This document shows positions 37,254 to 56,017 of a stretch of DNA of 64,000 bases, one piece after another. The DNA comes from Candidatus Latescibacterota bacterium (lineage in GTDB: Bacteria; Latescibacterota; UBA2968; UBA8231). How positions within the stretch are numbered: position 1 is the first letter of the stretch; the number at the start of each line of letters is the position of its first letter. Both the position numbers and the translations under genes were made by a program. The stretch lies in NCBI GenBank assembly GCA_965223905.1, contig CBDCXV010000009.1, positions 384,001 through 448,000 of the forward strand, read 5' to 3'. The notes below the pieces were generated by a model, which ran no database searches, was not told where the DNA came from, and saw only the letters and a list, made by a program, of their open reading frames with translations.

Positions 37254-37336
37254 GGGGATTCAAAGGGTAGCTCAGCTGGTTAGAGCACCGGGTTGAGGTC
37301 CCGGAGGTCGTGGGTTCGAGTCCCACCCCTCCCCCC
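37254..37336 (+). tRNA. Non-canonical tRNA: GAG anticodon, short variable arm, His-like G-1:C73, 6-nt acceptor bulge
   Basis: D stem GCTC/GAGC, anticodon stem CCGGG/CCCGG with loop TTGAGGT, T arm GTGGG-TTCGAGT-CCCAC; TTGACA upstream at 37212. Confidence 0.8.
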
Positions 37337-37489
37337 GGTTTTTTCCCGTTCAGAGGTTGCCTCCCATATTCCCGAGTAATTCCCGAAATGAGAAAATGAT
37401 CTCCTAAGGCAGGGCTCTCAGAAAAAAATGGCTACCAATCCCGCGGAGTAGAGAAAAATCTGAAACTAAACCGAGGAGGAGGTTTGACA

Positions 37490-37621
37490 ATGAAAACAGC
37501 TTGGAAAGCAGTACGAATTATGCTGACTGTAGTTGGGGGAGCACTGCTGGAGGCAGATTCGCCGGTGGAGGAAATATTCTCCACCGGCGACATCCCGCCA
37601 AAACCCGGGTTTCTGAAGTAG
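37490..37621 (+). CDS. 43-aa peptide with hydrophobic N-terminus
   Basis: Strong RBS GGAGGAGG; MKTAWKAVRIMLTVVGGALLEADSPVEEIFSTGDIPPKPGFLK. Confidence 0.45.
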   Translation: MKTAWKAVRIMLTVVGGALLEADSPVEEIFSTGDIPPKPGFLK

Positions 37622-37764
37622 TCAGACTCCGATGCTGGGCCTATCCTCTGTGCCCCGTACATAACCCTGAAGACTCACACCCCCCTTCGCCTAAAAAAAA
37701 CGGGCAGCCGCGTGATCGAGGAAGATCAACGACTGCCCGCCCCCGCCCCCGCAGCAGCTGGCTA

Positions 37765-38247
37765 TTACCCCTCCTGACGCAGTTCCTCCCGCAGTTCCCC
37801 CAGATACGGGAACCGCTTTTCCTCGAGCTCGGCGGCCAGCTCCTGATTCTCGGCCCATTCGGGCGGCAGGACGGCGACCTGAGCGCCGACCAACCGGGTG
37901 TCCGCCGTCGCTTTTGCCGTCGGCCATGAGCTGGCGGGACAGGCATGAATCGCCTTGCCTTTCTTCGTAGCCTGAACCACCACGGCCAGGTGCCATCTGC
38001 CCCCTTCCGGGTGCTTCACCCCGACGACGTGGCCCTTGCGGACGACCAGTTCGGTGCCGTCGACCAGGGGCACGTGCGGGATCTCCACGAGGGTTTTCCG
38101 TACGCGCCGGAGGTAGGACTTTGAACGATCGTTGGCGTTTTTCCCCTGGCGTATCCCTGAGCAGGTGCCCGAGCAGGTTTTGGTGTGTGGCCGCGCTCTG
38201 AGCCGGGCGGGTGGAATGTTCTTTCTGCATACCGTGCACTTCTTCAT
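37765..38247 (-). CDS. Zinc-finger (CxxC...CxxxC) hypothetical protein
   Basis: RBS AGGAG; MKKCTVCRKNIPPARLRARPHTKTCSGTCS. Confidence 0.65.
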   Translation of the reverse strand: MKKCTVCRKNIPPARLRARPHTKTCSGTCSGIRQGKNANDRSKSYLRRVRKTLVEIPHVPLVDGTELVVRKGHVVGVKHPEGGRWHLAVVVQATKKGKAIHACPASSWPTAKATADTRLVGAQVAVLPPEWAENQELAAELEEKRFPYLGELREELRQEG

Positions 38248-38294
38248 GTGCTCCTGTTCTCTTCCTGGTATCCTCCCGACCTTCCGTCGCCCCC

Positions 38295-38489
38295 TTATCC
38301 CAGCAGGGCGGAAAGGAAGCGGAGGAAGCGGTTGAGGATGCGGCCGCCCACCGATTCGGGTGGGTGGCGCTCGGTCCACTGCGCTTTGAGCCGCTCGTTT
38401 TCCTGGCGGCGTCGGTCGGCGGCTTCCTGGTCGAGAGCGGCGGCGGTCTCCAAGTCCCGTGGCGTAAGGGGGGTCCGTTCTTCCTCCAT
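38295..38489 (-). CDS. Small hypothetical protein
   Basis: GGAGG RBS; co-oriented with the operon. Confidence 0.5.
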   Translation of the reverse strand: MEEERTPLTPRDLETAAALDQEAADRRRQENERLKAQWTERHPPESVGGRILNRFLRFLSALLG

Positions 38490-38843
38490 CAGGTCATCGC
38501 CTCCGGTTTCAGGGTCCAGGGTGTTCCTTCCCGGTCCCTACAAATTATCCGCCTTTCGGCCGGTCTCAAGGTCCCGGCCCGCTCGCGGCAGCAAGCTGGC
38601 GGGGGGATCCGGTGACTTGGTGGAGCTGCGCTCGCAGCTTCCGGTTCTCCTCCCGCAGGGCGCACACGCGCTCTCCCAGGGCCTGAACCGCGTCCCAGGG
38701 CCAGGGGGGATGCCGCTGCCCTGCCGGTCGGGGACATACCGCTTCTGCTCGTGCTTGGTATCCTCCCGATTGCGAGCCCGGCACTTGGGACACCGGGCTG
38801 TAGGATTCCGCCGACCGCCCGAAGGCGGCCGGCCCCCTCTCCG

Positions 38844-39452
38844 TTACTCAGGCGTCGGGTTTGCGTCGTGCTGGCGCTTGAGCCGGTCGCCTTCGTCGTT
38901 GTCGTAGCGTGCGCAGCCCTCGCCGTCGACGAACTCCCGCAGATCGTTGCGGCGGATGGCGTGGGCCAGCTCGCGCACCGCCTCGGCGGACCGATCGTTG
39001 GGCCAGTAGGTCTGGTTGACCCACCGCTCGATCTCGCCGGCGATCTGGCCGCGCTCGTGCGTCGGGTCTGCCGGGACGGCCGGGTCGGCCACCGAGCCGG
39101 GCAAGGGGGTCAGCGCCTCCCAGGCGGCGTCGCTGTCGTTCACGTCGGTATCCTTGCGCCACACCGACCCGTCGTCGCAGAAGGCGATGACGTGGCTGAC
39201 GATGCCCGGGCCTGCGTTGGATACGGTTTTCAAGACCGTCCTGCCTTCCGGGGCGGTCCCGAAGTATTTGCCGATGAGCCCGGTGAGGGTTTCGTCGCCG
39301 AGGCCGATGTCGCCGGCCACGGCGATGGCTTGATCGGGCGTGGGTATCTTCTGGCGGATGCCGCGCGGCCCGCGCTGGACGCACAGGTGTCCGGCGATGT
39401 CGTGCAACGCCACCACCAGTTCCCCGTTCCGGTTCCTGCCAAACAGTTCCAT
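38844..39452 (-). CDS. Hypothetical protein
   Basis: GGAGG RBS preceded by a hairpin. Confidence 0.65.
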   Translation of the reverse strand: MELFGRNRNGELVVALHDIAGHLCVQRGPRGIRQKIPTPDQAIAVAGDIGLGDETLTGLIGKYFGTAPEGRTVLKTVSNAGPGIVSHVIAFCDDGSVWRKDTDVNDSDAAWEALTPLPGSVADPAVPADPTHERGQIAGEIERWVNQTYWPNDRSAEAVRELAHAIRRNDLREFVDGEGCARYDNDEGDRLKRQHDANPTPE

Positions 39453-39530
39453 GTGTCGAATCCTCCAAAAGCCCCCAAGGGGCGTTGTGGAGGCCGTAGC
39501 GAAGGGCCACGGCCTCCGTCCGGGTCGGGT

Positions 39531-41561
39531 CTACTCCTCGACGCTCCCAGGCCGAGCCGTGAAGCCCGGCGGCGTCCATTTGCGGATGCGGTCCTTGGCG
39601 TTCTCCGCCAGGGTGACCTCGCCGTCCGGGTTGCGGAAGATGGCTTGGGCGTGCTCGGCCAGTTCCTTCTTCTTGTAGCTCTTGAAGCCATCGGCCCATT
39701 CGCTGTCGCCGGCTGAGGCCATCGCCGCGAGGATGGCCTTCTTGGGGATGCGGGACCAGAACACGTCCGCCGACAGCCGGGCGTCGGCCAGCGGCGGCCC
39801 GAGCCGCTCGATGGCGGCTTCCAGCTCGACGGCCCCGGTCTCGATGCTCAACTGATTGGTGACCATTGCCGCGACGCAGAAGGCCAGCAGGTCCTGCTTG
39901 TCGTTCTCGCTGATCTCGCAAAACGCCTGCCAGCACTGCCCCACCATGCGCTCCGGATCGGTGCCCAACCACGGCTCGTGGCGCTTTTTCAGCTCCTCGG
40001 CGATCTCCTGAAACCGCGCCTCGCCGGGGTTGTTCTCGGCGAACCCGGCGTCCTGGTAGCGGTCGACCGGGTGCGTCGCGGTGACGGTCGCGGAAAACTC
40101 CAGCGCCTTGCGCCCGTAGCCGAGGTTGTCCCCCCCCAGCATCTGCCGGCCAAGCTGGAACACCAGCAGATCCACCGCGACCAGAGGCCGCTGGGCCAGT
40201 TCCGCCTTGACCATTGAGGTCCGGATGTGCTTCAAGTCGTCGGCCAGCGCCTGCGACACCCCGGCGTCCTTGCGGGCGTCGGCTTCCGGGTTGGACGCTG
40301 AGGGGGCCTTCGTCCGCGGCTTCACGGTGCCGTTGCCGCCGTGGCCGTTGCTGCCCGTTTCGACCACCGCCTGGGCGGCCGCCGCGTCGTCGGGACGGAT
40401 CAGGCCGCTTTCCGCCCGCACCGCGCCGCCGTTGGCCAGGTAGACGCACACGCCGGAAGCGGCCTTCTGCTCGGGCGTGAAGGCGGTCCGCTGCTCGACG
40501 GCGCCGGTGATCTCGTTGTGCTGCCGTTCCAGCCGGTCGTATTCGTCCTCGTCCCATTCGTCGCCGCCGTCGTCCTCGTTGTCGTCGTACGCCTCGTGCA
40601 AGGTGCCCATCTTCTCCTCGATGGCTTCCAGCTTGGCGGCTTCCTCCTCGGTCGGCTCCGGCTCGGGGGCGTGAAAGCGGCCGTAGCCGGCCAGCGCGGT
40701 GTAGTCGTACTCGAGGAGCACGTCGGCCCACTTCCAGCCCTCCTTTTTCAACTCCCCGGCGAGCTTGTTCAGCTTCTCGATCGCCAGCGAGCGCAGCAGT
40801 TGCGGGTCGTCGACGTAGACCCCGGCCTCGTCCCTTTCGGCGAACAGGTCGCGGGTGACGGTGCCGCCTGCGGCCTCGTACTCGGCGATGCCGACGAACT
40901 GCGCCGCCGCCGAACCGCCGTTCAGCTTGTCGTCGAGAAGCGTCGAGCGGATCGAGCGCGGGTTGACGTGATAGTGGCCCTCTACCGCCTTGAAACACGT
41001 CAACTGCGCCTCGGGGTCTGCCGACACGGTGAAGGCCATCAGGGCCTCCAGCGTCAGCTTCTCGTCGCGGTAGGCTTGCAGCAGCTCGGGGTGGACGCCG
41101 GCCAGCCGCAGCCGCTTCTCGACGGTCACGGGCGTCACCCCGAAGCGGGCGGCGATGGCCTCGACGGTGTGGCCGGCCTCGTGCAGCTCGCGGAAGGCTT
41201 CCACCTGGTCGGCGGGGTGCATGTCCGCCCTGACTACGTTCTCGGCAAGGCTGATCTCGGCGACCTCCTCCTCCTCCCCCATGATGAGACAGGGGACGGT
41301 GTAGGTGTCGCCGTCGATCTTGCCCTTGCCGGCCAGCCGCTGCAGGGCCTGAAAGCGCCGGCCCCCCGCGACCACGCCGTACGAGTCGTCGGCCTGAGAA
41401 TCCCCGGTGAGCAGCACCTGCAGGTTCTGGCGGACGCCGTGCGCGTCGATGGACGCTTCCAGCTGATCGTCCTCCTCCTTGGTCGCCGGCGTCGTGCGGA
41501 CGTTGGATTCGCTCAGATACAGCTTCCTGAACGGGATTGCTTCGATGTGGGATACGGTCAT
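39531..41561 (-). CDS. Long ParB/Spo0J-like protein (plasmid/ICE type)
   Basis: VVAGGRRFQAL, SLAENVVRADMHPADQVEAF, YEAAGGTVTRDLF. Confidence 0.9.
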   Translation of the reverse strand: MTVSHIEAIPFRKLYLSESNVRTTPATKEEDDQLEASIDAHGVRQNLQVLLTGDSQADDSYGVVAGGRRFQALQRLAGKGKIDGDTYTVPCLIMGEEEEVAEISLAENVVRADMHPADQVEAFRELHEAGHTVEAIAARFGVTPVTVEKRLRLAGVHPELLQAYRDEKLTLEALMAFTVSADPEAQLTCFKAVEGHYHVNPRSIRSTLLDDKLNGGSAAAQFVGIAEYEAAGGTVTRDLFAERDEAGVYVDDPQLLRSLAIEKLNKLAGELKKEGWKWADVLLEYDYTALAGYGRFHAPEPEPTEEEAAKLEAIEEKMGTLHEAYDDNEDDGGDEWDEDEYDRLERQHNEITGAVEQRTAFTPEQKAASGVCVYLANGGAVRAESGLIRPDDAAAAQAVVETGSNGHGGNGTVKPRTKAPSASNPEADARKDAGVSQALADDLKHIRTSMVKAELAQRPLVAVDLLVFQLGRQMLGGDNLGYGRKALEFSATVTATHPVDRYQDAGFAENNPGEARFQEIAEELKKRHEPWLGTDPERMVGQCWQAFCEISENDKQDLLAFCVAAMVTNQLSIETGAVELEAAIERLGPPLADARLSADVFWSRIPKKAILAAMASAGDSEWADGFKSYKKKELAEHAQAIFRNPDGEVTLAENAKDRIRKWTPPGFTARPGSVEE

Positions 41562-41643
41562 GGTTCGGTTTCTTCCTCTTAAGAGTCGGTAAGGGGGTAA
41601 AGCGGGAGGCCCCGAGCCGGCGACCTCCCGCCCTGAAAAGGTT

Positions 41644-42030
41644 TCAGCCTGTGGGGTGGTCGCGCTCCAGATGCTGAATAGCCCGCGCCTCGATCTCGAC
41701 AATCGAGTGCGGGTGGTCGGCCTCGTCGCGCCACGAGTGCGACGCCAGCCTGCCGGTGACGAACACCGGCGAGCCTTTGGTCAAGCAGTCGGCGCCGCGC
41801 TCGGCCTCGCTGTTGCGGACGATGACGTTGAAGTAGTGCGCCTCGTCCTGCCACTCGCCTTCGAGATCGCGGTACGAGCGGTTGACGCACATCCGGAAGG
41901 ACAGCCGCGACTGCCCGCTCTCGGTGATGCGATACTCGGGGTCCATGTGCAGCCTGCCGGCGATGCACACCTGATTGATGGCGGGCATGGGCAGGGCCGG
42001 ACGCGGCTCCTGTCGGGTTTCCTGTGTCAT
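41644..42030 (-). CDS. ssb: Single-stranded DNA-binding protein
   Basis: INQVCIAGRL..DPE...LTKGSPVFVTGRL; lacks the acidic DDIPF tail. Confidence 0.88.
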   Translation of the reverse strand: MTQETRQEPRPALPMPAINQVCIAGRLHMDPEYRITESGQSRLSFRMCVNRSYRDLEGEWQDEAHYFNVIVRNSEAERGADCLTKGSPVFVTGRLASHSWRDEADHPHSIVEIEARAIQHLERDHPTG

Positions 42031-42098
42031 GGGGTTTCTCCATTGGTGAAGGGGGAGGAAGCCCACAGGCGAGCCTGTGCGCCCCCTCCTGAGTGAGA

Positions 42099-42707
42099 TT
42101 AGCCGGCAGCCCGGTATTTGGCCGGCAGCCGCCTGAAATCGCCGGGCCGATGGGTCACGTATTCGGCCCCGGCCTGTGCGGCCTGCCGGTAGACGTCGGC
42201 GATACTCGGCCCGGCCCCGTGCTCGCGGCGACCCAAACGCCACTTGTAATGGCGGTTGCGGCCCGCGAAGCCCTCGACGGCGGGGTTGGGGTCGACCTCG
42301 GTGATCTGCGCGACGGACAGGTAGACCTCCGCCGCATCGAGCAGCATATCCCGCACCTGCCTGTCGATGGGCCGCTTGGCGAAGTCCGTCACCCGGTACA
42401 GGTCCAGCGGGAAGCTCAACGGGGCCGGGTCATGGCACACAAGCCCGTTGCGCTGTTCGTCGAAGCGGGCGATCCACACCCGCGCCTCGGCGGGAAGCAG
42501 CCCGACCAGCAGGTTGCTGTTCTCGATGAATTGCCCGTTGTCGTAGGCGACCAGATGAACGCCGCCCGTATCGCAGAACAGGCCGGTGGCCCGGTTCGTC
42601 GCCAGCGCCGCAGGGCAGGAGCGGCACTTGGCGATCTGCCCGTGCTTGATGTCGGCGTCCCGGATCTCGACGGTGACCTCCAGCGCGGGGTTCAGGTTGT
42701 TGTCCAT
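42099..42707 (-). CDS. Hypothetical protein
   Basis: GAGGAG RBS; CRSCPAALA motif. Confidence 0.65.
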   Translation of the reverse strand: MDNNLNPALEVTVEIRDADIKHGQIAKCRSCPAALATNRATGLFCDTGGVHLVAYDNGQFIENSNLLVGLLPAEARVWIARFDEQRNGLVCHDPAPLSFPLDLYRVTDFAKRPIDRQVRDMLLDAAEVYLSVAQITEVDPNPAVEGFAGRNRHYKWRLGRREHGAGPSIADVYRQAAQAGAEYVTHRPGDFRRLPAKYRAAG

Positions 42708-42783
42708 TTGCGTTGGTTCTCCTCAATGGGGGTGAAGGAAGGCAGGGGGGACCGCAGGCCGGCCCCGGCCCCCCCTTAATCCT

Positions 42784-42957
42784 TCATGCGCGGCGAGCCT
42801 TCCGGCGCTGGCCGGGGGTGGCGATCCCGTAGCGCCGGCAGAGACGGCCGAAGCTCGACGGGGCGATCCCGAGCGCGGCGGCCGCGTCGCGGGTGCGGTG
42901 ATACATCCGCGCGGCCCGCTCGATGCGCTCGGGGGTGTAGGCGGTCTGGCTGCTCAT
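42784..42957 (-). CDS. Small Fis-like HTH protein
   Basis: RDAAAALGIAPSSFGRLCRRYGI; start overlaps the radC stop. Confidence 0.7.
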   Translation of the reverse strand: MSSQTAYTPERIERAARMYHRTRDAAAALGIAPSSFGRLCRRYGIATPGQRRKARRA

Positions 42958-43682
42958 ACGATCCCTGTCTCCTTCAACGACACGAAGTCGGACCGTGCGA
43001 TGATGATGTGATCGAGGACCTCGATGCCCATGATGAGCCCGGCTTCGCGCAGCCGGTGCGTCAGGTCGATGTCGTCCTTGCTCGGCGACACGTCCCCGGA
43101 GGGGTGGTTGTGGGCGAGGATGACCGACGCGGCGCACTTGGCCACGCCGACCCGGAACACTTCGCGGGGGTGGACGATGGACGCGCTCAGGGAACCAATC
43201 GAGACGACCTCCTTGTGGATCACCTGATTGCGAGCGTTGAGGTAGAGGCAGACGAAGAACTCTTTGGGCTCGTCCTTGATGTCGGCCAGCATCGGGATCG
43301 TCTCGGTGGGGGTGCTGATTACCGGCAGGATGCCGATGCCGCGATCCAGCGCCCGGCGGGCGATCTCGACGGCGGCCAGCAGGCAGGCCGCGCGGCGCTC
43401 GGTGACGCCGCGCAGGCCGGCGAGCTTGTCCACGGGCAGGTTGACCAGCTCGCCGAAGTCGAAACGCTCGACGATGGACCGTGCGTCCTCCTCGGACGCG
43501 CCCAAGGCGACGGTCAGCAGCTCGGAATCGCGCATGGACTCGGCACCGTCCGAAATGAGCCGTTCCCGGCACGTAGGAGCCGCCAGAGGGCCGTCGTACA
43601 CCGGGCCGGTCTCTGACACCCTGTCGGCCCCGTGCGCCGGACGGGCGCAGGTGACGCGGTCTGCGGGGGTGTGCATCTTCAT
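42954..43682 (-). CDS. radC: RadC/JAB-domain protein
   Basis: DSELL, VHPREVF, AHNHPSGD, VLDHIII. Confidence 0.93.
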   Translation of the reverse strand: MKMHTPADRVTCARPAHGADRVSETGPVYDGPLAAPTCRERLISDGAESMRDSELLTVALGASEEDARSIVERFDFGELVNLPVDKLAGLRGVTERRAACLLAAVEIARRALDRGIGILPVISTPTETIPMLADIKDEPKEFFVCLYLNARNQVIHKEVVSIGSLSASIVHPREVFRVGVAKCAASVILAHNHPSGDVSPSKDDIDLTHRLREAGLIMGIEVLDHIIIARSDFVSLKETGIV

Positions 43683-43767
43683 GGCTATCCATTCTCCTTG
43701 ACAGAGGGTGATGGTGTGTTGTGGGAGGGGGGGACGTTGTGCGCGTCCTCCCCTCCCTTTTTGGTGC

Positions 43768-44547
43768 CTACTCCAACAGCCGGCAGGCGATGCGCTCCAA
43801 GACTTCGCGGACCGCTTTCGTCGGCTCGGCGTTGATGATCTCCTGCAACTCGGCGGCGACTGCGGCCCGGACCTCGCGGGAAACCTCGCCGCGCACTTCA
43901 TCGCGGATCCGCTGCCTGTGCCGGGTGGCCTCGGCGATGCGCTCCCGCTCCTCGACGATGCCCAGCGCCCGCCGCACCTGTGCTTTCCAGTGCTCGGCGT
44001 TGAGGGTGTGCAGCCCGTTCTCGTACTGCGCCCGCGCCGCATGGCGGAAGCGCCGGAAGTCGAACGGTACCCAGTTGGCGAAGTCGGCAGCCGCCGCCTT
44101 CAGGATGGCCTCGGCGTCCATGCCGTGCTCGGGGTGCAACTGAACCTCCAGCCGCTTGTCGAGAGGACGGGCGTCCAGTTCCAGCGCCACCCGCTCCAGC
44201 ACGTCGAAGCGGCCCGCCCGGTCATAGGCGTCGATGGCGTCCTGAATCCAACGCTTGCACTGCACGTCGTCGGCCATCTTCACGGCGGTATCAAACTCGA
44301 TGTCCTCCAGGTCGCCGCCGGTGCGGATCTCGGCAGCCCGCCGCAGCTTGACCTTGCCCCCGTCGAAGCGGAAGAAGTAGGCCGGCAGAATCCACGGTTT
44401 CGCCTCGACCGTCAGGGCGATGCACGCCATCTGATCGCCGGCCAGCTTGGCGGTGCAGTGCAGCTTGACGAGGGTGTCATACGACCGCTGCACGGCATCG
44501 CCTTGCCGGTTGTCGGCCCCGGCCCCGTTGCCGTTGGGATGCTTCAT
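43768..44547 (-). CDS. Hypothetical protein
   Basis: 259-aa ORF with RBS, downstream of hammerhead-like motif 1. Confidence 0.7.
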   Translation of the reverse strand: MKHPNGNGAGADNRQGDAVQRSYDTLVKLHCTAKLAGDQMACIALTVEAKPWILPAYFFRFDGGKVKLRRAAEIRTGGDLEDIEFDTAVKMADDVQCKRWIQDAIDAYDRAGRFDVLERVALELDARPLDKRLEVQLHPEHGMDAEAILKAAAADFANWVPFDFRRFRHAARAQYENGLHTLNAEHWKAQVRRALGIVEERERIAEATRHRQRIRDEVRGEVSREVRAAVAAELQEIINAEPTKAVREVLERIACRLLE

Positions 44548-44560
44548 CGGTTTTCCTTTC

Positions 44561-44619
44561 CGGTTTCTTGAGCGCGGCAGGATTGCCGCGCCCTCGTCAG
44601 CCCGTCGATTCGGGGACCG
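44561..44619 (-). ncRNA. Type III hammerhead-ribozyme-like motif, copy 1
   Basis: CGGUC-CCCG(AAUCGA)CGGG-CUGACGA-GGGCGCGGCA(AUCC)UGCCGCGCUC-AA-GAAACCG. Confidence 0.7.
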
Positions 44620-44875
44620 TTAAAGGCTGCCGGTGCCCGAGAGGGGAAAGGCACCGGCAGCCCCTTCACGCGGGCCAGCCGCGCGGTTTCTTCTTCCCGG
44701 CGTTGCCCTCGATCCACGCCTTCATCCCTTCCCAATGCGGGGTGCGGCTGTCTGTCAGGAACTCGGCCACACCCTCCGCCTTGGTCCGGTTGGTGCTGGC
44801 AAAGCAGAGTCGTTCTTCGGCGTCGAGGACGCGCCACGTCCGACTGCCGCGAGTCTTGACCGCGAGGTAAGTCCA

Positions 44876-45313
44876 TCAGCTGGCAGCCTTCGCGCCTACC
44901 GGCTCGCCGCAGGCGTGATGCAGCTTGGGGTAGATGGAGGCGCCGCACCGGGGGCAGTCCTTGGTGGCAGGGTCCAGCTTGCCGCCGTGAGAGCCGACAG
45001 CCTCCATCCCGGTCAACTCCTCCAACAGCGGCACCGCCACGTTGTACCGCTCGATCCTCATGGCGATGGCCAGCGCCGTCAGTTGCCCGCCGCCGATCCC
45101 GAGCAGGGCCAGCACGATGGGCGCCTCGCAATCCTCCTCGGCCCATCCCGGACCGTGATAGAAGCAGGTGAGCAACTCAGCCGGCAGACGGTCCTGAACC
45201 TCGGCGGACAGCCGCAAGCCGCCGTGTGAGGCCGTAGCGACGAGATCGACACCGGCGGCGAGGGTTTCGACGTGCTCGATCCGGCCCCACGGGGAGTGTC
45301 CGGGTTTACGCAT
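44876..45313 (-). CDS. DUF7007-like protein
   Basis: SPWG...TASHGGLRLS...WAEEDCE. Confidence 0.7.
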   Translation of the reverse strand: MRKPGHSPWGRIEHVETLAAGVDLVATASHGGLRLSAEVQDRLPAELLTCFYHGPGWAEEDCEAPIVLALLGIGGGQLTALAIAMRIERYNVAVPLLEELTGMEAVGSHGGKLDPATKDCPRCGASIYPKLHHACGEPVGAKAAS

Positions 45314-45333
45314 GGGTTCTTATCTCCGGTTTG

Positions 45334-45389
45334 CGGTTTCTTGAGAGCGGCTCGTCCGCTCCCTCGTTAGCCCGTTGATTCGGGGACCG
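45334..45389 (-). ncRNA. Type III hammerhead-ribozyme-like motif, copy 2 (CUAACGA core)
   Basis: CGGUC-CCCG(AAUCAA)CGGG-CUAACGA-GGGAGCGG(ACGAG)CCGCUCUC-AA-GAAACCG. Confidence 0.62.
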
Positions 45390-45428
45390 TCCAAGCGCCG
45401 GTGCCTGTCAAGCACCGGCGCTTGGGTA

Positions 45429-45719
45429 TCAGTGCGAGACGTGCAGGCCCGCCTCGGCCATGCCCTCGATCAGGTGCTCGATCGCGGACGCGGGAACGTC
45501 CACGGAGCCGAGAAACGGCGAGTCCTCGGCGTGCTCCTCGATCCACTGCCGGCCCTCGTCGGTGAGCACGTCGACGCGGTAGAACGACCCCGAGTCTCGC
45601 ACCACCAGCACGTCCGGCGACTGCGCCACCATGCGCACCTCGGGCAGAACCTCGAAGCGAGGATCGCCGTTGTGGTCAAAGGAGGTCGCCCGCGCGACCT
45701 CGACGAGTACGGTCTGCAT
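45429..45719 (-). CDS. Hypothetical protein
   Basis: GGGAG RBS; 96 aa. Confidence 0.6.
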   Translation of the reverse strand: MQTVLVEVARATSFDHNGDPRFEVLPEVRMVAQSPDVLVVRDSGSFYRVDVLTDEGRQWIEEHAEDSPFLGSVDVPASAIEHLIEGMAEAGLHVSH

Positions 45720-46060
45720 TTGCTTGTTCTCCCTTATCAGGTAGTTGCCACGATGCCGCAGCGCCGGCAGCGGTGGCGGTAGACGCGGTCAGGCACGGAG
45801 ACGGCGATCCAGTCGCCGCCGTCCCGGCACAGGCACGACCACACCCAACCGGGACAGGTAGCCCGCTTGCGCTCCATCGCATCGAGGGAGCGCCGCAGGG
45901 TGACGTGTGGACGGGTGTCAGCCATCAGCCGATAACCCGGTGCCAACGCAGGCGGAAGAAGAACCGCCGCATGTAGGTGTTGAATCCGGCGGGAGTAGGT
46001 CGCGCAGCTATCGGCCCGGTGAGAGCCACAGCCCGCTGATAGGCAAGCAGGTTGAATGCG

Positions 46061-46432
46061 TTAGCCATTGCGACCGCACATGTGGACCGCGAGACGGGCA
46101 GCGGCCTCCTCGTAAGCGACGCGGGACAGGCTGTTGGTGTGGCCGCCCGCATCTTGCCAAGCGCACCACGCGGCATGTTCGGCCGCCACGGCCGCGCGGT
46201 AGCGAGCGACCGCAGAACGGATCTGGACGCGATACAGCGCCTTCCATGCGTCGATCCGGTACCGCTCCGCGTGCAGGCCGGCAACGGTCAGCCGAGGCAT
46301 ACGCGGGTGGAAGGACATAGGCACGCGCCGGACCGCCGCCCGCCCGGAGCGGAAGCGCAGATCGAGCTTTTCGTGATAGTCCGAGTCGGGGCGGCGATCC
46401 GCCGGCGGCTCAGTCTTGAAGGTCAGTGGCAT
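46061..46432 (-). CDS. Hypothetical protein
   Basis: GAGG RBS after a hairpin. Confidence 0.5.
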   Translation of the reverse strand: MPLTFKTEPPADRRPDSDYHEKLDLRFRSGRAAVRRVPMSFHPRMPRLTVAGLHAERYRIDAWKALYRVQIRSAVARYRAAVAAEHAAWCAWQDAGGHTNSLSRVAYEEAAARLAVHMCGRNG

Positions 46433-46510
46433 TGATTGGCCTCTTGTATGTGAAGGGAAACGAACAAGGCCGGAACCGATGACGTACACCGGTCCCGGCC
46501 CGCTCTCAGT

Positions 46511-47092
46511 TCAACGCTCGCTGTACCACGAGCCCCACGTCTCGCCGACACGCTCCGCATTGTCGCGGCAGTTGTCGGTCAGCTCAGTGGCAGCACGACG
46601 GGCCACAGGCTCAGAACGCCACGCCTGCTCGACAGCCCAACAGACATCACACCATCCCGCTTCATTGTGTTCAAGCGCCGAGCGACACGCGATCTGCCCC
46701 TCGACAATGCCGATCTGCAGGTAGTAGTCGCTCTCGTGATGAGAGCCTTGCAGGTGGTTGTGGACAGCCCGCTCAAGCCATTCGACGGCGCAGCGGTGAT
46801 CGGCGAAGCGGTGACCGTCAGAGTCGACAGGCCCCGCCTTGGCAGCCCACAGCTCGCTGTCGCCGTCAAGCTCGATGATGCCGCGCACGGTGTTATCGCG
46901 CCGCACCACTTTGCGTAAGGAGCGAGCCCGCAACGCGAGCGCGAGAGCCGCGGCGACCACTACATCAGGTTCGGTAGCGGTCAGGGCGCGGTAATCGTCG
47001 GCGAACACGGCGCCGGACTGCACCAGCTGGGCCACGCGACGCGCAGCAGCTCGCCGTTTGATCTGACGAACCACCACGGCCGCATCGCACAT
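46511..47092 (-). CDS. Hypothetical protein
   Basis: Co-oriented ORF; start uncertain. Confidence 0.5.
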   Translation of the reverse strand: MCDAAVVVRQIKRRAAARRVAQLVQSGAVFADDYRALTATEPDVVVAAALALALRARSLRKVVRRDNTVRGIIELDGDSELWAAKAGPVDSDGHRFADHRCAVEWLERAVHNHLQGSHHESDYYLQIGIVEGQIACRSALEHNEAGWCDVCWAVEQAWRSEPVARRAATELTDNCRDNAERVGETWGSWYSER

Positions 47093-47337
47093 GGTAATCA
47101 GGCTCAGCGTCCCCACGAGGACACCGCCCGTTCTCTCTCCTTGGCAGACCATGCGTCGAGCGCAGGGCCATACGTGAGGATCGCGGCAATCAACACCATG
47201 CCGGCGAAGAGGATGGCGGACATGCCCACCACCCTGAACGCCGAATGCCACACGCGCCGAGTAGTGCATCGGTTCATTGTGCTTTCCCTCCGGTTGAGGT
47301 TGGGGTTGCATCGGTGTTTGAGTGTAGCCATACCGGG

Positions 47338-47366
47338 ATAATACAGTTTTAATCTACGTAGAGCAA
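47338..47366 (-). promoter_or_regulatory. Sigma70 promoter of the leftward operon
   Basis: TTGCTC-17-TATTAT on the minus strand. Confidence 0.7.
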
Positions 47367-47696
47367 GCCCTTTCCTCGCGCCGGTAGTTGCGTTCAGGTC
47401 GTTTCAGGTAAGCCCGTCCGGTTTCTTAATCGAAAACGACAGGCGAACATCGCCCGGACACACGCCGCCCGCCTCGCCGGCCCGGTTCGGCCTCGACCTC
47501 GCCGCACGGCCCCATCAGGCCCGATCCGGCCCCGATTCGGGACCGCTGGACGCACCGCCAGTGCGTCCAGCGAAGCAGGGATTCAGGAGGGGGAAGCGGC
47601 CATTTTCCGGCTCCGGCCCGGAATCCGGCACGGGAGGGGAGCCGGCGAGGGTGGAGCCTTACGCAATCCCCTGAAACTGTATGGTATCTTAGGGTA

Positions 47697-47973
47697 TGGG
47701 TGAACGTATGTTCACCCAATCAGAGAACACCCGATATTTATGTTTAACGCGGGTTCTCAACTATAATGAACCGACAGGGGAGCTATAGAAACAGATTAAG
47801 CGAAATGCGGACATAGATCCTATCTTCCACAAGAAGAGCGGGGGCCGGCCTTGGGAACCGGCTCGAACAGGCGCTTCCCCGGCTCCGATACCCCCGGTTC
47901 TAATTAAGATCCTAATGAAGGAACACGGACCCACAGGTCCACACCCCGAAGCATGGGTGAACGTGCGTTCACC
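47697..47973. promoter_or_regulatory. Two GGTGAAC-N4-GTTCACC palindromes
   Basis: Located at 47697-47718 and 47956-47973. Confidence 0.65.
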
Positions 47974-48678
47974 TCTTTTTTGGTTCGTATAACTCGAGGG
48001 CGAGCGGACGTAGTCGGCGAAGGATTATAGTCAACGACACCGCCAAAAAGGCTTGGCTAAACTGGCCATTGCAGAAAAGGCTGGTACGCTTAAAAAAAAG
48101 GACGGGCCCCCCAAGAGGGAGCCCGTCTTTCACCCAACAGCACAAGGACCGGCGCTGCGTCAACAGCGATCCGGTCCACATCCATGATTGGAGGCCAAAC
48201 ATGAACGATTTGAAGGTAGTTCCCGAATGAAACACCGGGCAAGAGCGGTGGTACCAGGCCAGCAGGTATGACAAATACGATCTCCGCGGCCGGATTCCTT
48301 CACCGCGTCGGGATGATCCCCTTAATCAGGAAATCTGGGCGGCCATGGCTTCTCCCGACGCTGGACAGGGTCGTCCCGAAAAACCGAACCGGCAATGGAC
48401 GCAGCTCTTATGGGCTGCCGTCCGACGGTCCGTTTCCTGCTCCAATGCGCCGAATGAAGGATGGAGACACCCGACCTGAAAATTTTTTTTAACGGGATTT
48501 AGCCAGGAAAACAGGTTGCATTTGAAACTATAGCCTTTCAAGTCGTTTCAGGACTCGGAAAACCTGGCTGTTTCCCCGCTAAGAGCGTGTTGACTACCAA
48601 GGAAAACCACGGTTGCATAGGAGGTGTTAAGGTGACTTGACAAACCGTTCACCCTTTAAGTCATGGAGCGAAACAGGA

Positions 48679-48852
48679 ATGCCCCGGAAACCGTATTCCT
48701 TCACCGAGCAGGTCTGGTCCCGAGTCTCCCCGAAGCTGCTTCGGAGAGTGTATCAGGCGATAGAGAAAAACGAGTCCGTCGACTCGCTGGCCGCCTGGAT
48801 TCGCCTGGCCATCGTCGAGAAGCTCCACCGCGACGAGCTGATGCAGGTTTGA
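48679..48852 (+). CDS. Ribbon-helix-helix-like regulator
   Basis: VWSRVSPKLLRRV...SLAAWIRLAIVEKL; first gene of the replication operon. Confidence 0.65.
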   Translation: MPRKPYSFTEQVWSRVSPKLLRRVYQAIEKNESVDSLAAWIRLAIVEKLHRDELMQV

Positions 48853-48862
48853 GGACTTCCTG

Positions 48863-50085
48863 TTGAGCAGAACCGACGACATAGACTGGCCCGCCTCGAT
48901 GCCGGAGGTAGCCGAACGGCTGCTTGGAAAACCGACGTCGATCCAGAACGGCGGCCATGAATGGCGGTATCGCCGAAAGGGTTCGCTGGCGGTGCATGTA
49001 GGCGGTGACCGGGCAGGCCGTTGGAAGGACCACGAAAGCGGGGATGCCGGCGGCGTGCTGGACCTGATCGAAAGGGAGCGCGGTTGCGATCACGCCGCGG
49101 CCATGAAGTGGCTGGAAGGCGAAGGGCTGATACCGGCCAAGTCAGACCGACGTCGACGTCGAACCGGGGCGGCCCCGACGGGGCCGCCCGCCAAAGCCGC
49201 TCAGAAGCCGGGTGAGCGCCTGTTTGCGGACTCCACCTCGACCCTGCCCGCACCGACGAAGACCGTCAGAAGATTGCCTACGCAGGCTGGATATGGAATG
49301 CGGGGGTTCCCGCCGACGACACCCCCGGACGCATCTATGCGTCGATGACGCGGTGGGTCTGGCCCGGCGTCGAGGTGACCGAATCTCCGAATCTGCCCGA
49401 AGCCGTGCGCTGGTTGTCCCGGGGAGCCGCAGAAGCCCGCGATCCCGAAACCGGCAGGCCCCTGCTGTGGCTGCCCCCAGGCGCCGCCGGCGCCCTGCTG
49501 TTCGCGTTCACCGACGCGGCCGGCCACGTCGTCGCCGTGCACTTCGAGGCCCTGACCGCGGCCGGAGAGCTTGTTCCCTATACCGACCGCGACGGCCAGC
49601 GACATAAGCGATACGAGCGGACTCGAGGGCGCAAGGACGACGGGTACATGCAACTGTCTCCTCGAAGACCCCATGAGCCTCTGCTTGTCCTGGTCGAGGG
49701 CCCTATGGACGCATTGGTGGCAACCTGGTTACAGCCCGGCGCTGTGGTGTGGTGCTGTGGGGGCCGCCTGAAGTTTCCAGCCGACCTGCCCGACGGCGGC
49801 TACGCCGTGCGCATCGAAGCAGACGGCGATGACCCCGGACGGACGGCAGCGGCCGAAGTGCGCGATGCCCTGGAGCTCGAGGGCGTATCAGTGGAGGTGA
49901 ATTGGCGGACCAAGGGAGACCTGGCAGAGGAATGGCCAGACACGCTGCACTACGAGCGTATTGAGCGTGCGGCCCTTCTGGAGATCGACGGGGAACTGAC
50001 CCGGGAAGAAGCCGAAGCCGCCGCCGCCCAAGCCTGGCCGACAAGCCGGCTGTGGGAATTATGGATGAAGCCCAGGAGCGAATGA
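48863..50085 (+). pseudogene. DNA primase (TOPRIM), split by one frameshift near 49220
   Basis: GRWKDHESGDAGGVLDLI; LVLVEGPMDAL; ADGDDPG; the second frame is already protein-like from ~49231. Confidence 0.8.
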
Positions 50086-51317
50086 AAGAAGCCCAACAAA
50101 ACGGAGAGGTTCCCACGACCGCCAAGCCTTGGCAGGACGAAGCCCGCGAATTCTTCAATGAGTGGGAAACGCGACGAAATGATCGCAACGCAGCTCCGCG
50201 GAGTTTGGAGCGGCTGCGCAGCTTGGCTTTCCCCCCTGAAAAACCCGCCCCGAGTGACGAACTATCGGACGTCGAAATCCTGGATGCAGCCCACAAGGCA
50301 TGGAAGGAAAACCCCGACGACCCGGCAGTTATTCGCAACCTGCTCAAACCGCCGCTGCTTCAACCGATGACCAAATGGCAAAACGCCACAGATCCGCCCC
50401 CCATTATGTGGCACGACCACCCGGATGACCGTTATGCCCACAGCGTAGTGTCAGAGGGGGAAGTCGGCATCCTGAGCAGTGCCGGCGGAACCGGCAAGTC
50501 CTACCTGTCCCTGGCGTGGGCTCATGCGGCCTGCGCGGCCTATGCGCAAAGGGAAGAATTTGGAACCGCCTGCGGTATGCGAGTAGCTGCCGGCCCGGTT
50601 GCCGTGATCAGCTACGAGGATACTCCGGAACGCATTGCGGTGCGCCTGAAGGCCATAGGCGGCGGCCCGATTCCGGGCGCCCTGCATGTGTGGGAGTATC
50701 CGAACCCCTTGTGGCACGCCGAGGCCGAACAGGGAGGCGGCAGTTTCCCGGCAAAGCAGTGGGGTGACTTGTGGGACCAGATCCGTCAGATCAAGGCAAA
50801 GCTGCTGATAATTGACCCGGCATCGGCCGCACTCGCCGACGTGTCTACCTCAGAAACCGGTCCAGTACGCGCCTTCCTGCGCGAGTTGGCCAAAGAAGCA
50901 AAACGGGCCGGATGCGGTGTTCTGATCGTAGGCCACAATACCAAAGCGGCCCGCATAGCCATAGCACAAGGCGACCTGGAGACGGGGGCCGCAGACCCGA
51001 TAGCCGGTTCGTCGGTGTGGTATGACGGTGCCCGCGGGGTGCTCCTGTTGGCGCGCGACCGGCTATCCAAGCCCGATCGCGTATTGGTTTCGGTCAAGTC
51101 CAACTACGGTGGCATGGGCTGGGGAGCCCGCCTGAAGGAACGGTTCAACGACGAGAAGAAGTTCGCCGGCCTGGAACTGGCAACTCGTATGGACTCCGAG
51201 GCAGTGGAGGGATGGTGCGAGGACGTGAGAAAAAAGAAGAAACCCAACAGACCGAAACCGTCCCCAGAGGACAATTCTGACCCCAATCCGAAACCGGAGA
51301 GGGTTACTGCCGCATGA
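50052..51317 (+). CDS. AAA_25 / RepA-like replicative helicase
   Basis: SAGGTGKS, SYED, LIIDP, GHNTK, KSNYG. Confidence 0.88.
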   Translation: MGIMDEAQERMKEAQQNGEVPTTAKPWQDEAREFFNEWETRRNDRNAAPRSLERLRSLAFPPEKPAPSDELSDVEILDAAHKAWKENPDDPAVIRNLLKPPLLQPMTKWQNATDPPPIMWHDHPDDRYAHSVVSEGEVGILSSAGGTGKSYLSLAWAHAACAAYAQREEFGTACGMRVAAGPVAVISYEDTPERIAVRLKAIGGGPIPGALHVWEYPNPLWHAEAEQGGGSFPAKQWGDLWDQIRQIKAKLLIIDPASAALADVSTSETGPVRAFLRELAKEAKRAGCGVLIVGHNTKAARIAIAQGDLETGAADPIAGSSVWYDGARGVLLLARDRLSKPDRVLVSVKSNYGGMGWGARLKERFNDEKKFAGLELATRMDSEAVEGWCEDVRKKKKPNRPKPSPEDNSDPNPKPERVTAA

Positions 51318-53074
51318 AATCCAAACAGCGGAAGGTAGCTCGCGGGCAAAACGAAAACGCTCTACAAGCTGCCCTGGACTTCCCGGAAGAGGCAAGGGAA
51401 AAAGCCTTGCGTCCTGCGCAGCTGGCGAAGTGGAGCGCACTGGACCCCCAGGGTTTTCCCGATGCCATCGCTTTGGTGGCGTCCCTTCGCCAGCTAGGCG
51501 ATTGGCAAGCCCGGCTGCACGACTGGTGGGAACTGATGCGGTTTCCGGCGGAAGCCGAGCCTCCCTCTGGTCCTGGCCCGGTTCACGAAATCAATGGAAG
51601 GAAATTCGACTTGGAGTTCAGGGAGAGGGTGTACGTCCTCCCCCGCGAGGCCCTAGCGGATTTGTCCCGCGAAGACCCTGACCGAGCGGAACGATGGAAA
51701 ACGACAGTGGAAAAGATTTCCAAAACCACCATCGAGGAGCCGATCCACGACGAGCCGGATTGGGAAAAGGTCCTTCCTCAACCGCTTACCGAGGAAGATG
51801 GGGCGGATCTGGCCGAAACCCTTATGCGCCTCGAGACCCGATTTCGCGGGTTCATGTTGAAGAAGTTTCCCTGGCATCCCTTGCCCCCTGTGAATCCGAA
51901 AGGGGTCGCTGCGTGGACCTCCTTGGCCGAAAAAATGCGAAAGGCCCCCGTCAACGCAGATGGCTTGTCAATGCTTGCCCAGGTGAGCCAAAAGGGAGAA
52001 TTCGAACAGAGGCATAAAGTCCTGTGCAAATCCCTGGCGCCGGTGCGCACCGTGCGTCCTGTGGAAAAATCGGTTCTCCCCAACAAAACCCGATTTCCGG
52101 CACTTGGGTTTTCGCAGCAACCCGACTGCCAACTGTACCTGCCTGGATTGGATCCGGTTCCGAATCGGCTGCCTGTGCCCTGTATCCCCCTGATCCTTTT
52201 TGATGAAAACCCGGCATGTCAAGAGCTCTACCACGGCAGCGGTGTTCCGCTTCCTTTGCGGCTTTTCGTTGAGGTATTGCTGGCGTTCGGGGCTCGCCAG
52301 ACGGAGACCCCCCAACCACTGCTATGCACCTTGCGCCAGCTGGTTGATGGCCTATGGCCGAAGGGTTGGCGGCGGCGCCAGGATTGGCCCAGGCTGAAAC
52401 GCAGCTTGGATCTCCTGACCGTGTCCGGCGTCGAGTGGAATAATGAGAAAAAGGGTGGTATTTGGCGACCCATCACCGTGCGGAACGTGCCCCGCGACGG
52501 GGCGGCTTTGGATGACATAATACGGTTCGAGATTCTACTGCCACCCAATAGCCATCAAGGTCCCCTGGTGGATCGTAGCGTTACGCGGATACTCGGCTTG
52601 GGCTCGGCCCCGGCGTATCGGCTTTACCTGGCCGTCTGCTATCTGTGGGACCAGCGTGCCACGTACCGAGGTCGGTTGATCGATTCAACCAAACCGAAGG
52701 TTCTCCGCAACCAGGAAGGCCATCTGGTAAATGCTCATAACGAACCGATTGTTTCCCAAGGCCGTTTCACCAAAAACGCCACTCACAAGCGCGCCGTGAG
52801 GACGGGGGGGCGCGAACGAAATGAGGAGGGCATCAGCCGGGGGTACCCGGCTCTGACTGATCAGGATGTGGAAGCGATGGCCTATCCTGCCGGAAGCAGG
52901 GAAAAGCTGACGAGGCAAGCCCAAAGCAACCGCCGGGTTCGTGCTCGCCAAGCCGTTCACAGGATAGTGAAAGTGGGCGGCGCAATTCTTGAAGAGCTAC
53001 CCGACAACACGGTGCGGTTTCTGCCACCGCGCAGTCACAAGGCTGCCCACGATGCCCGCGCCAGGGCCGCATGA
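51314..53074 (+). CDS. Putative replication initiator
   Basis: Coupled to the helicase; wHTH-like TLRQLV...RLKRSL and SAPAYRLY; iterons immediately downstream. Confidence 0.55.
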   Translation: MKSKQRKVARGQNENALQAALDFPEEAREKALRPAQLAKWSALDPQGFPDAIALVASLRQLGDWQARLHDWWELMRFPAEAEPPSGPGPVHEINGRKFDLEFRERVYVLPREALADLSREDPDRAERWKTTVEKISKTTIEEPIHDEPDWEKVLPQPLTEEDGADLAETLMRLETRFRGFMLKKFPWHPLPPVNPKGVAAWTSLAEKMRKAPVNADGLSMLAQVSQKGEFEQRHKVLCKSLAPVRTVRPVEKSVLPNKTRFPALGFSQQPDCQLYLPGLDPVPNRLPVPCIPLILFDENPACQELYHGSGVPLPLRLFVEVLLAFGARQTETPQPLLCTLRQLVDGLWPKGWRRRQDWPRLKRSLDLLTVSGVEWNNEKKGGIWRPITVRNVPRDGAALDDIIRFEILLPPNSHQGPLVDRSVTRILGLGSAPAYRLYLAVCYLWDQRATYRGRLIDSTKPKVLRNQEGHLVNAHNEPIVSQGRFTKNATHKRAVRTGGRERNEEGISRGYPALTDQDVEAMAYPAGSREKLTRQAQSNRRVRARQAVHRIVKVGGAILEELPDNTVRFLPPRSHKAAHDARARAA

Positions 53075-53086
53075 ATCAGGGAAAAA

Positions 53087-53254
53087 ATGTCCACCTACTA
53101 TGCGTACCCAATCAGCCCAAAGGACCTTTTTTGGGACCTGAAATCAGGATTTCCTCAGGATTGACTTGGAAAAACACGAGAAGGATGTGTTTCCAGCCAA
53201 TTTTGGGGGAGGTACGCATAGTAGGTGGACATCGTACGCATAGTAGGTGGACAT
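53087..53254. repeat. 22-bp iteron-like repeats (one inverted, two tandem)
   Basis: GTACGCATAGTAGGTGGACAT at 53212-53232 and 53234-53254; reverse complement at 53087-53107. Confidence 0.85.
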
Positions 53255-53505
53255 GTGCTCTCCTGACGAAGGCCGATCCCCATATACCCCAGTACCCCCA
53301 GTACCTGGGGGTGCTGGGGGAAGGAAACGGCGCGCTTTGAAACGCGCGCCGTTCCTTCCCCAGAGCCTCGTTGCCGGCCGCCGCCCGAAAAATCGCCTTC
53401 CGGCCACCCGGAAAGCAGCCGTAGGCGAGACGGGGCGTTGGACCCTATCTTTGATATGCTTGAGAGGGTGAGATTTGGAAAAATCTGGGGAAAAAACGAT
53501 GAGCC

Positions 53506-54345
53506 TCACTTCGGAGCAGGCGGCGGTGGATCGGGATCTGCACGATTTTCCTGTCCGGGAGGTTGAGTATTCAGAACTCTTCTCAGACGCCGAATTAGGT
53601 GTTCACCGAGTCGAAGACGTGATTCTTCTAGAACATGCAGCGCGAACTCTTGAAGGACCGATTCGTGAACTCGAACGCCGTGAAACTCGTATGTTAAGGG
53701 ATCTTCGGTATATCCTCGGGTCTCAGGTCGATCCAAAATCTTCTTTTGAGAATGCCACAGAACAACAACGTCTGTTTGTCTGTCAGCAATTGGAACCAGT
53801 AGCGGACCTATTACGTAGTCGCCACACCCTGGAAACTTTGCTCCCACTTCTGAGGATCTGTACCCAGTCAATACAGCATGCCCTTCATCGAAAGCGTTCT
53901 TTACTTGGTCTGTTATTGGAGGAGAAGGAGGGGTCCTCCAATATTCCTCCATCCTAATTCTCTGGGTTGGCCTCTCCAGCGCCACAACAGTCTGCAATCT
54001 CTGAATTAGGTGTTCACCGAGTGGAAGACGTGATTTTTCTAGAACATGCAGCGCGAATTGTTGAAGGCCCAATTCGCAAACTTGAGCACCGTGAAACTCG
54101 GAGGGGTTGGCATGTTCTTGTCCCAGTTTGATTGGCGCAGCCTTCCATTGGGAGTGCCACAGAACAACAGCAGCACGGTTGTCAGCAAATGGAATCAGTA
54201 GCGGGCCTTTTGCGTGGCGGCTACACCCTGGGAACACCTCTTCCACTTCTGATAATCTGTACCTGGGCAATACAACATGCCCTTCTTCGAAGGCGTACAC
54301 TGCTTGCTCTGTTAGTGGACGAAGAAGGGCATCTCCCCATTTCAT
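53506..54345 (-). CDS. Hypothetical protein made of a tandemly duplicated ~137-aa domain
   Basis: AFEEGHVVL / AFDEGHAVL and FALHVLEKSRL / FALHVLEESRL; the DNA is also duplicated. Confidence 0.75.
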   Translation of the reverse strand: MKWGDALLRPLTEQAVYAFEEGHVVLPRYRLSEVEEVFPGCSRHAKGPLLIPFADNRAAVVLWHSQWKAAPIKLGQEHANPSEFHGAQVCELGLQQFALHVLEKSRLPLGEHLIQRLQTVVALERPTQRIRMEEYWRTPPSPPITDQVKNAFDEGHAVLTGYRSSEVGAKFPGCGDYVIGPLLVPIADRQTDVVVLWHSQKKILDRPETRGYTEDPLTYEFHGVRVHESVLQEFALHVLEESRLRLGEHLIRRLRRVLNTQPPGQENRADPDPPPPAPK

Positions 54346-55252
54346 GGGTAAATTTTCTTTCAGGTTGACCTAACGCGGTTAGTGGAAAAAGAGGAGGTGC
54401 TCTTGCTGCAACCAGGGTTCTTCACCCGCTTATTTCCGGAAAAGAAGCCCCCAAAAGAAACGTAGAGGGACGGTATGGGGCAACCTTTCCATTTAGGAAA
54501 GCAAACCCCCTCATCCACCCATGCCCTCCCCTGATCCGCGTTGGATCGGCTCGTCGCTCCAGAACTTTCAGCAGAACCCACGCCGGCAGCCCGCCACCAG
54601 AACGGGAACGACGACCCCGAGAATCGGTCCCAGTAAGCCCCCGATGGCCCCCACCATGCGGCGGCCATCCCCAGAACCGCGTAGCCGAAAACCAGAAGCG
54701 GCCAGCGGCGGTGTCCCGAATCGTCGCAGTCGATCCCCGACCTGAGCGCCACGAGCCCCGATTCGTCCTCGATTCACTTCCCCCCGTCACGCCGGCGACG
54801 AGCCGATTGAACGCGGTTGCGGGGCTTCCAGGGTCGCCCGGCGGCCTTGTCAGCCGGCGCTGAGCGTCGTTCCCCTGAAACAATCTGGACCGCTACGGGC
54901 ATGAAAAACCCCGTTTGCATCCGAATCGCCACCCGATTAGAATTGGTGCTGCCACATATCAACGAGAAACCCGATGTGCCGGGTTTTTCGCTGAATACAA
55001 CAGCCAGAAATTCCCGGCATAGGGGTAGCTCCCCGGTGCTTGGCGAATAGGCGGAACCACATCGTTCTCGTTGATGGTGGCAGGGCCCGGCAACCCTTTT
55101 TTAACAGCCGGGCTTCCTCTCATCCTTTCAGGAGGACGACCCATGCGCTGTGATCTCGCACCCCCCCCCTTCCGCACCACCGGCTGAACCCGCTCAACAG
55201 CTAGACGAGAGACCGGTCCCCTCCGGGATCCTTTCTCGCACGTCCCTACAAA

Positions 55253-55905: not shown

Positions 55906-56017
55906 AACGGCTACTAACCGGAAGCCTCTCCAAATTTGCAAGGGCTTGGTGAGGCGGGGGCCGCGCCCGCCCGGCGGCATCTTCCCCACCACTTCCCCAA
56001 GGAGAGGGAGGGAAGAA

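Follow-up and report, generated by a model that had tools for sequence, protein, structure and literature searches.

In RiboJ-type synthetic insulators a hammerhead ribozyme is placed just upstream of the RBS, where its cleavage sets the 5′ end, and in hammerhead switches that sequester the RBS it is cleavage that frees it. Both were engineered from canonical ribozymes, whereas the arrangement described here is natural, with a putative effect on expression. Among the closest natural systems are those of Perreault et al. 2011 (PMC3088659), whose text reports clustered hammerheads that flank prophage genes, several to an element, and proposes that they process polycistronic RNA; the genes flanked are not constant. 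The core variants named in that text are A6C, A6a, U13a, U15.1-A16.1 and 2a/2b, with no insertion between positions 11.1 and 12 among them, and the core insertions A6a and 2a/2b are stated there to lower activity strongly. The same text covers the HHphage and HHmeta variants from salterns, which have a two-nucleotide insertion in the core and lie 13 nt upstream of a viral start codon, with a transcript 5′ end within three nucleotides of the cleavage site. A 2019 review (PMC6765202) calls the purpose of hammerheads in bacteria undefined.

The window, by which we mean the whole stretch of 64,000 nucleotides analysed here (positions 384,001 to 448,000 of contig CBDCXV010000009.1, from a Candidatus Latescibacterota bacterium), contains two hammerhead-like RNAs on its minus strand. 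They are 80% identical overall, and the window has exactly two occurrences of the 30-nt 5′ half that they share, against none in 100 shuffles. From comparison with their relatives we think it probable that both belong to a distinct type III hammerhead subclass that would cut the mRNA just upstream of the RBS. The features of this subclass are a 4-bp stem I with a conserved hexaloop (AAUUAA, or AAUCRA in the GC-rich members), a full core (C3 U4 G5 A6 N7 G8 A9, G10.1-C11.1, G12 A13 A14, A15.1-U16.1 and C17) and an invariant AA between C11.1 and G12.

By direct reading of the sequence and by its fold, copy 1 (44620–44561, minus strand) runs A-CGGU-C, CCCG-AAUCGA-CGGG, CUGACGA, GGGCGCGGC-AAUCCU-GCCGCGCUC, AA, GAAA-CCG. 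Stem III pairs 44619–44616 with 44564–44561 (CGGU/ACCG), C17 is 44615, with cleavage predicted between it and 44614; stem I (44614–44611 with 44604–44601) closes loop 1 (44610–44605) and is followed by the core CUGACGA (44600–44594), stem II (44593–44585 with 44578–44570), the AA insertion (44569–44568) and G12-A14 (44567–44565). The insertion aside, the core of copy 1 is canonical at all positions. Copy 2 (45390–45334, minus strand, read and folded in the same way) has the same architecture, with C17 at 45385, the core CUAACGA at 45370–45364 in which an A (45368) stands at the G5 position, the AA at 45342–45341 and G12 at 45340; its stem II is GGGAGCGG/CCGCUCUC and its loop 2 is ACGAG. In both copies stem I is a 4-bp hairpin, CCCG-AAUC(G/A)A-CGGG, stem III is CGGU/ACCG with a U-A pair beside the unpaired C, and stem II is an 8–9-bp GC hairpin, with C-G (copy 1) or A-U (copy 2) as its fourth pair. 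A sequence-only reading of the window had already set out the order of GUC, 4-bp stem I, CU(G/A)ACGA, stem II, AA and GAAA on the minus strand, as well as the C-G versus A-U difference in stem II, and direct comparison of the copies agrees with it on both counts. It was also right about the GC hairpin ahead of each copy (44665–44622 and 45425–45391 by folding) and about the distance to the start codon, which is 13 nt before the ATG for copy 1 and 20 nt for copy 2. Folded alone, each motif has the three-way hammerhead secondary structure as its MFE structure, with modest z-scores of −2.5 (copy 1) and −2.0 (copy 2), and the family covariance model R2 gives the two copies 62.3 and 55.4 bits, respectively.

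The hairpin directly 5′ of copy 1 (44622–44665, minus strand) is GC-rich, with a 17-bp stem and no U-run; that directly 5′ of copy 2 (45391–45425, minus strand), also GC-rich, has a stem of about 16 bp, and the stem sequence GCCGGUGC/GCACCGGC is common to the two. Neither was called a terminator by a terminator scan, and a promoter scan of 43500–48500 found no sigma-70-like site. Downstream of copy 1, the purine-rich RBS region GAAAGGAAAACCG and an ATG (44547–44545) together occupy 44545–44560 and start a 259-aa gene without a family match (43768–44547, minus strand). Downstream of copy 2, a leader with GGAG and an ATG (45313–45311) occupies 45311–45333 and starts a DUF7007 gene (44876–45313, minus strand). 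A 96-aa gene on the same strand (45429–45719), again with no family match, ends just 5′ of the copy-2 hairpin. The operon products include the DUF7007 protein, a RadC-like JAB protein, SSB and a ParB-like protein.

On the reading that we prefer, the minus-strand operon would be transcribed through the upstream hairpin, and the RNA would fold to a three-way junction and cleave itself after C17 (44615/44614 in copy 1). The upstream message would end in the hairpin and a 2′,3′-cyclic phosphate, the downstream message would begin with a 5′-OH and two compact hairpins, 13–20 nt before its start codon, and the polycistron would thereby be split into units of separate stability and translation.

We compared the elements with the hammerhead families of Rfam release 15. 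Like RF00008 (Hammerhead_3), they have a three-way junction with both ends in stem III, a GUC triplet, CUGANGA, a G10.1-C11.1 pair, GAAA and an A15.1-U16.1 pair; unlike it, they have the invariant AA between C11.1 and G12 and the 4-bp stem I with its conserved hexaloop, and they score far below its gathering score of 48.5 bits, which the window copies do not reach. Taken position by position, the three helices, with the 5′ and 3′ ends in stem III, are found in the MFE folds, by covariation and by RNAalifold, and the G10.1-C11.1 pair is present in all five copies known from the genus (four in this genome and one in genome G011). The A15.1-U16.1 pair and a nucleotide other than G at position 17 are also present, the triplet being GUC in both window copies. 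C3 U4 G5 A6 N7 G8 A9 is complete in copy 1 and broken at G5 in copy 2, and in neither copy does G12 A13 A14 follow directly on C11.1, the AA intervening. The sequence-only reading had proposed a search with the Rfam hammerhead models: no hammerhead was reported for the window copies, or for the other copies in the genome, at gathering or at E-values up to 10, and RF00008 gave nothing genome-wide at E-values up to 1. None of the other Rfam families covers the element; matches at the window hairpins (miRNA, ar7, Scr3202 and CcsR1) were rejected as noise. On an AT-rich member of the family (L030) RF00008 scores 26.3 bits against the 48.5 of its gathering score, with GUC, stem I and CUGAUGA aligned, GAAAC and stem III aligned, and stem II skipped. 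Current Rfam models thus miss AA-type elements, and the annotation of hammerheads is incomplete as a result, both for GC-rich genomes and for many phage contigs. A literature search of article texts returned no description of an insertion between 11.1 and 12, and the AA-type subclass is apparently undescribed.

The genome as a whole (7.9 Mb) holds exactly four copies. Copy 3 (C9:843624–843686) has a textbook CUGAUGA core, with a ParB-like gene before it and the gene for a signal-peptide protein after it. Copy 4 (C9:848723–848785) has had its stem II rewritten at most positions with the pairing kept, GCCUCCUGC pairing with GCGGGGGGC. The same-genus genome G011 has one copy (locus L027), and a homologue of the 259-aa gene lies downstream of it, as also of copy 4. 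The upstream-hairpin stem GCCGGUGCC/GGCACCGGC is common to copies 1, 2 and 4 and the G011 copy (loci L004 and L027), and the upstream hairpin of copy 3 differs from these. Since a hairpin stem recurs in several copies, the repeated unit is hairpin plus ribozyme, about 110 nt in all. By pattern search the motif is present in 2 of 76 genomes of the bacterial family, the window's own genome counted, and a scan of genome contigs with a loop-restricted pattern, outside which the AAUUAA class falls, gave only the same-genus genome and two chance matches. Weak matches to the covariance model R1 in the window's own genome and in G011 (E 0.03–0.6), one of them antisense to a signal-peptide coding region, were set aside as chance.

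Viral and metagenome sequences yielded at least 165 relatives in at least 159 loci. In the viral scan, where one loop letter of the pattern was freed and the core kept fixed, stem I is fully paired (4/4) in 113 of the 124 matches listed, and the other 11, with 0–3 pairs, look like chance. The metagenome scan gave 36 matches, 22 with 4/4 stem I pairs and 14 with 1–3. When the core was kept and the stems were freed in the pattern, a diverged relative with changes on both sides of stems I, II and III was found on L019, a viral contig of 92 kb. Searches by blastn gave no match for an AT-rich member or for copy 1 among GenBank phages, and none for copy 1 among plasmids. Of ten genes downstream of relatives that were compared with PHROGs, one was recognised as an ATPase and one as belonging to a family of unknown function, and the other eight had no match.

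Covariation was assessed on 82 distinct sequences, many of them close kin, which had been pre-filtered on a perfect stem I. The proportion of paired cells is 98.3%, compared with 78.8% in shuffles and no more than 46.8% with slid partners; the contribution of stem I to this figure is there by construction, its ten different stem sequences are not. Changes on both sides are seen at 10 of the 15 pairs and in all three helices (n = 82). The count for G10.1-C11.1, a pair fixed by the search pattern, is uninformative in this alignment. RNAalifold, supplied with no structure, returned the identical 15 pairs and a type III hammerhead junction. Both the type III topology and the selection on structure that had been proposed from the two window copies are therefore upheld. 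On this comparative evidence the elements are real, selected RNAs.

The AA before G12, which the sequence-only reading had singled out as non-canonical and which is indeed in both copies, recurs throughout the family. A scan that did not demand it fetched 27 new loci, every one of which reads C-AA-GAAAC, and a pattern without AA gave only four matches, all with two stem I pairs at most and attributable to chance. We therefore regard the AA as a trait that defines the subclass, not as a lesion. It adjoins the general base G12, at a place in the helix where stem II is normally stacked on the A9-G12 pair, and our literature search returned no published kinetics for an insertion between C11.1 and G12. 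The HHphage and HHmeta insertion differs in lying at 2a/2b, beside C3 and stem I, where here it is beside G12, and these variants belong to archaeal haloviruses and need very high Mg2+ or salt, as the text of PMC3088659 describes them. The prophage hammerheads of that text are similar to the present elements in lying between genes of phage-like elements, several to an element and with variable neighbours; they have canonical cores or other changes, in contrast to the AA at 11.1/12 found here.

Another comparison is provided by type III hammerheads with canonical cores on phage contigs (L064:7805–7884, L046:3933–4012, L032:8557–8636, L115:9046–9122, and L031:1680–1751 and 2189–2263). These have in common with the AA type the contigs on which they lie, an AAUUAA loop on a short stem I and a place before an SD and ATG. 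They differ in having a 5-bp stem I, a GUA triplet and GAAAC directly after stem II, and in carrying, in place of the AA at the base of stem II, an AU bulge on its 3′ strand two pairs further up. These too fall short of the Rfam threshold, L031 scoring 33.4 bits against 48.5. We infer that the AU bulge is the docking partner of loop 1 and that in the AA type, where stem I is one pair shorter, this bulge has shifted to the stem II base. The AA bulge would then be a relocated tertiary contact for a very short stem-loop I and not a core lesion; loop 1 is conserved and the AA invariant, with no covariation linking the two and hence no Watson-Crick support. Many of the canonical-core hammerheads stand right after a hairpin and U-run. 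The same viral contigs also gave sub-threshold matches to the RAGATH-1 hammerhead (L042:548–635 at 32.0 bits and L040:1533–1632 at 29.6 bits; gathering score 56.3), so that several kinds of hammerhead appear to occur in one set of contigs.

Placement just before an RBS, claimed at the outset for the two window copies, proved to be a property of the family. Among the 121 distinct members listed, GAAA is followed within 30 nt by an SD-like motif in 118, and 120 have an SD-plus-start arrangement, the start codon following 11–31 nt after GAAA in 118 of these 120. In 90 of the same 121 listed members the 16 nt before the cut include an anti-SD-like word. Many relatives have an SD (GGAGG) that pairs, in extension of stem III, with a CCUCC-like word on the 5′ side of the cleavage site (for example L066:205–276, L166 and L043:3799–3872), and over the 121 members listed the flank duplex has a mean energy of −12.7 kcal/mol, against −9.0 for shuffled flanks. 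Where stem III is extended in this way, cleavage could free the SD. In L116 and L086 the anti-SD word doubles as the 3′ arm of an upstream hairpin, the 5′ arm of which mimics the SD. For the window copies themselves, pairing between upstream and downstream flanks was not convincing, and we do not extend SD sequestration to them.

These features allow a fuller and more speculative proposal. The AA bulge beside G12 may replace the loop-loop contact of other hammerheads and let a 4-bp stem I cleave fast at cellular Mg2+ in a subclass new to the literature, and the element may be a natural ribozyme-gated translation start, in which the cut detaches the anti-SD (5′ of the cut, in the stem III extension of many phage members) and switches the gene on. 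We put this forward tentatively, as possible rather than probable.

The sequence-only reading had named conservation of the core among homologues, beforehand, as a point on which it could fall, and the core proved to be conserved. The first viral and metagenome patterns fixed the core, and only two later scans relaxed parts of it. A core-free scan, in which the only fixed elements were loop 1, CAAGAAAC and part of stem II and nothing was demanded of the triplet, stem I or C3-A9, gave 105 matches (52 distinct sequences). GUC is present in all 105, stem I is paired 4/4 in all 105, and CUGANGA is conserved in 104, the remaining one having U4C; N7 is A, U or C. Matches found by the family covariance model alone include AUC with a compensating 15.2, GUU, one extra core A and one degenerate copy, and none of them has G17. 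Positions that matter to catalysis only are thus frozen while the indifferent N7 drifts, as would be expected if the ribozyme were active. Since the majority of relatives belong to a single AT-rich phage group and are closely related, the invariance of the core is partly inherited.

This pattern bears directly on the strongest of the alternatives, namely that the element is a hammerhead-derived leader in which the AA abolished cleavage and the junction is kept for protein binding, RBS accessibility or a block to 5′ exonucleases. Such a leader would have little use for C3, U4, G5, A6, G8, A9, C17 and G12-A14, which are invariant or nearly so in the family while N7 varies freely, and we consider it unlikely. 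It does draw support from the structurally sensitive place of the AA, from the poor activity of other natural core insertions in the text of PMC3088659 and from the constant position of the element right before the RBS. The anti-SD-like word seen in 90 of the 121 members listed likewise makes a purely structural role in translation conceivable. The persistence of copy 2 despite its G5A change points the same way; set against it, all 113 family members listed from a pattern permitting G or A have G at position 5, and contigs of three other runs (X3, X8 and X11) have G on the RNA strand at 45368 (plus-strand T to C, among the two differences listed in copy 2), so that the change is peculiar to the genome analysed here. 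The early warning over G5A was therefore well placed, and we predict that copy 2 is probably impaired, being slow or dead. Copy 1 is predicted to be active as a hammerhead of the AA type.

We also weighed whether the selected unit might be DNA, as a single-strand promoter, an initiation site of a conjugative leading region or a recombination site of a mobile element. A tRNA gene (37264–37330, plus strand) lies beside a block of mobile-element genes, and Toprim, AAA_25 and N6/N4 DNA methylase genes and one for a TraR/DksA-type zinc-finger protein are near the operon (window 37264–57187); this region is probably a mobile element, of uncertain type, that has integrated. Among the products of the neighbouring genes are SSB, a ParB-like protein, RadC and DUF7007, a set typical of the leading regions of conjugative elements. 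Moreover, in contigs from other public runs aligned to window 44480–45480, which are DNA-like assemblies, the genes between or beside the two ribozyme copies are replaced by other sequence (runs X3, X4, X8 and X11), with joints at 44619 and between 44574 and 45356, that is, at or inside the elements. A role for the motif as DNA is nevertheless very improbable. The family is found mainly on viral contigs in one fixed orientation to a downstream gene and its SD, and its conserved letters outside the helices coincide exactly with the hammerhead core. One stem II pair is U-G in 59 of the 82 aligned sequences, and G-U pairs work solely on the given RNA strand. The lack of a sigma-70-like promoter in 43500–48500 also speaks against it. 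That a repeated intergenic hairpin module is hammerhead-like by chance might be argued from the window, where just two copies at 80% identity cannot part structure from common descent, but is refuted by the at least 165 relatives with three covarying helices and a conserved core, together with the absence of the common 5′ half from shuffled sequence.

The hairpin-plus-ribozyme modules are borders of exchangeable gene cassettes, and the replacement of genes between the copies fits the remark in the text of PMC3088659 that the flanked genes vary. As putative ribozymes the AA-type elements make a test case for the role of bacterial and phage hammerheads, with at least 165 natural variants at a near-fixed 11–31 nt from a start codon, and the frequent folding of the SD into stem III offers a further handle on the role of the subclass. 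Copy 2, with its G5A, is a natural inactive-looking control beside the intact copy 1 in the same operon. If an invariant insertion next to G12 is truly tolerated, it would show that the hammerhead core can be re-buttressed, and the elements may serve as compact natural insulator parts.

Between the two copies, a stretch of 69 codons with high GC3 (44669–44875, minus strand) ends just 5′ of the copy-1 hairpin. It lacks a start codon at the 5′ end and lies in frame with the DUF7007 gene, behind the TGA of that gene (44876–44878), and could be explained by read-through, by a start that escaped recognition or by a nonsense change that arose recently.
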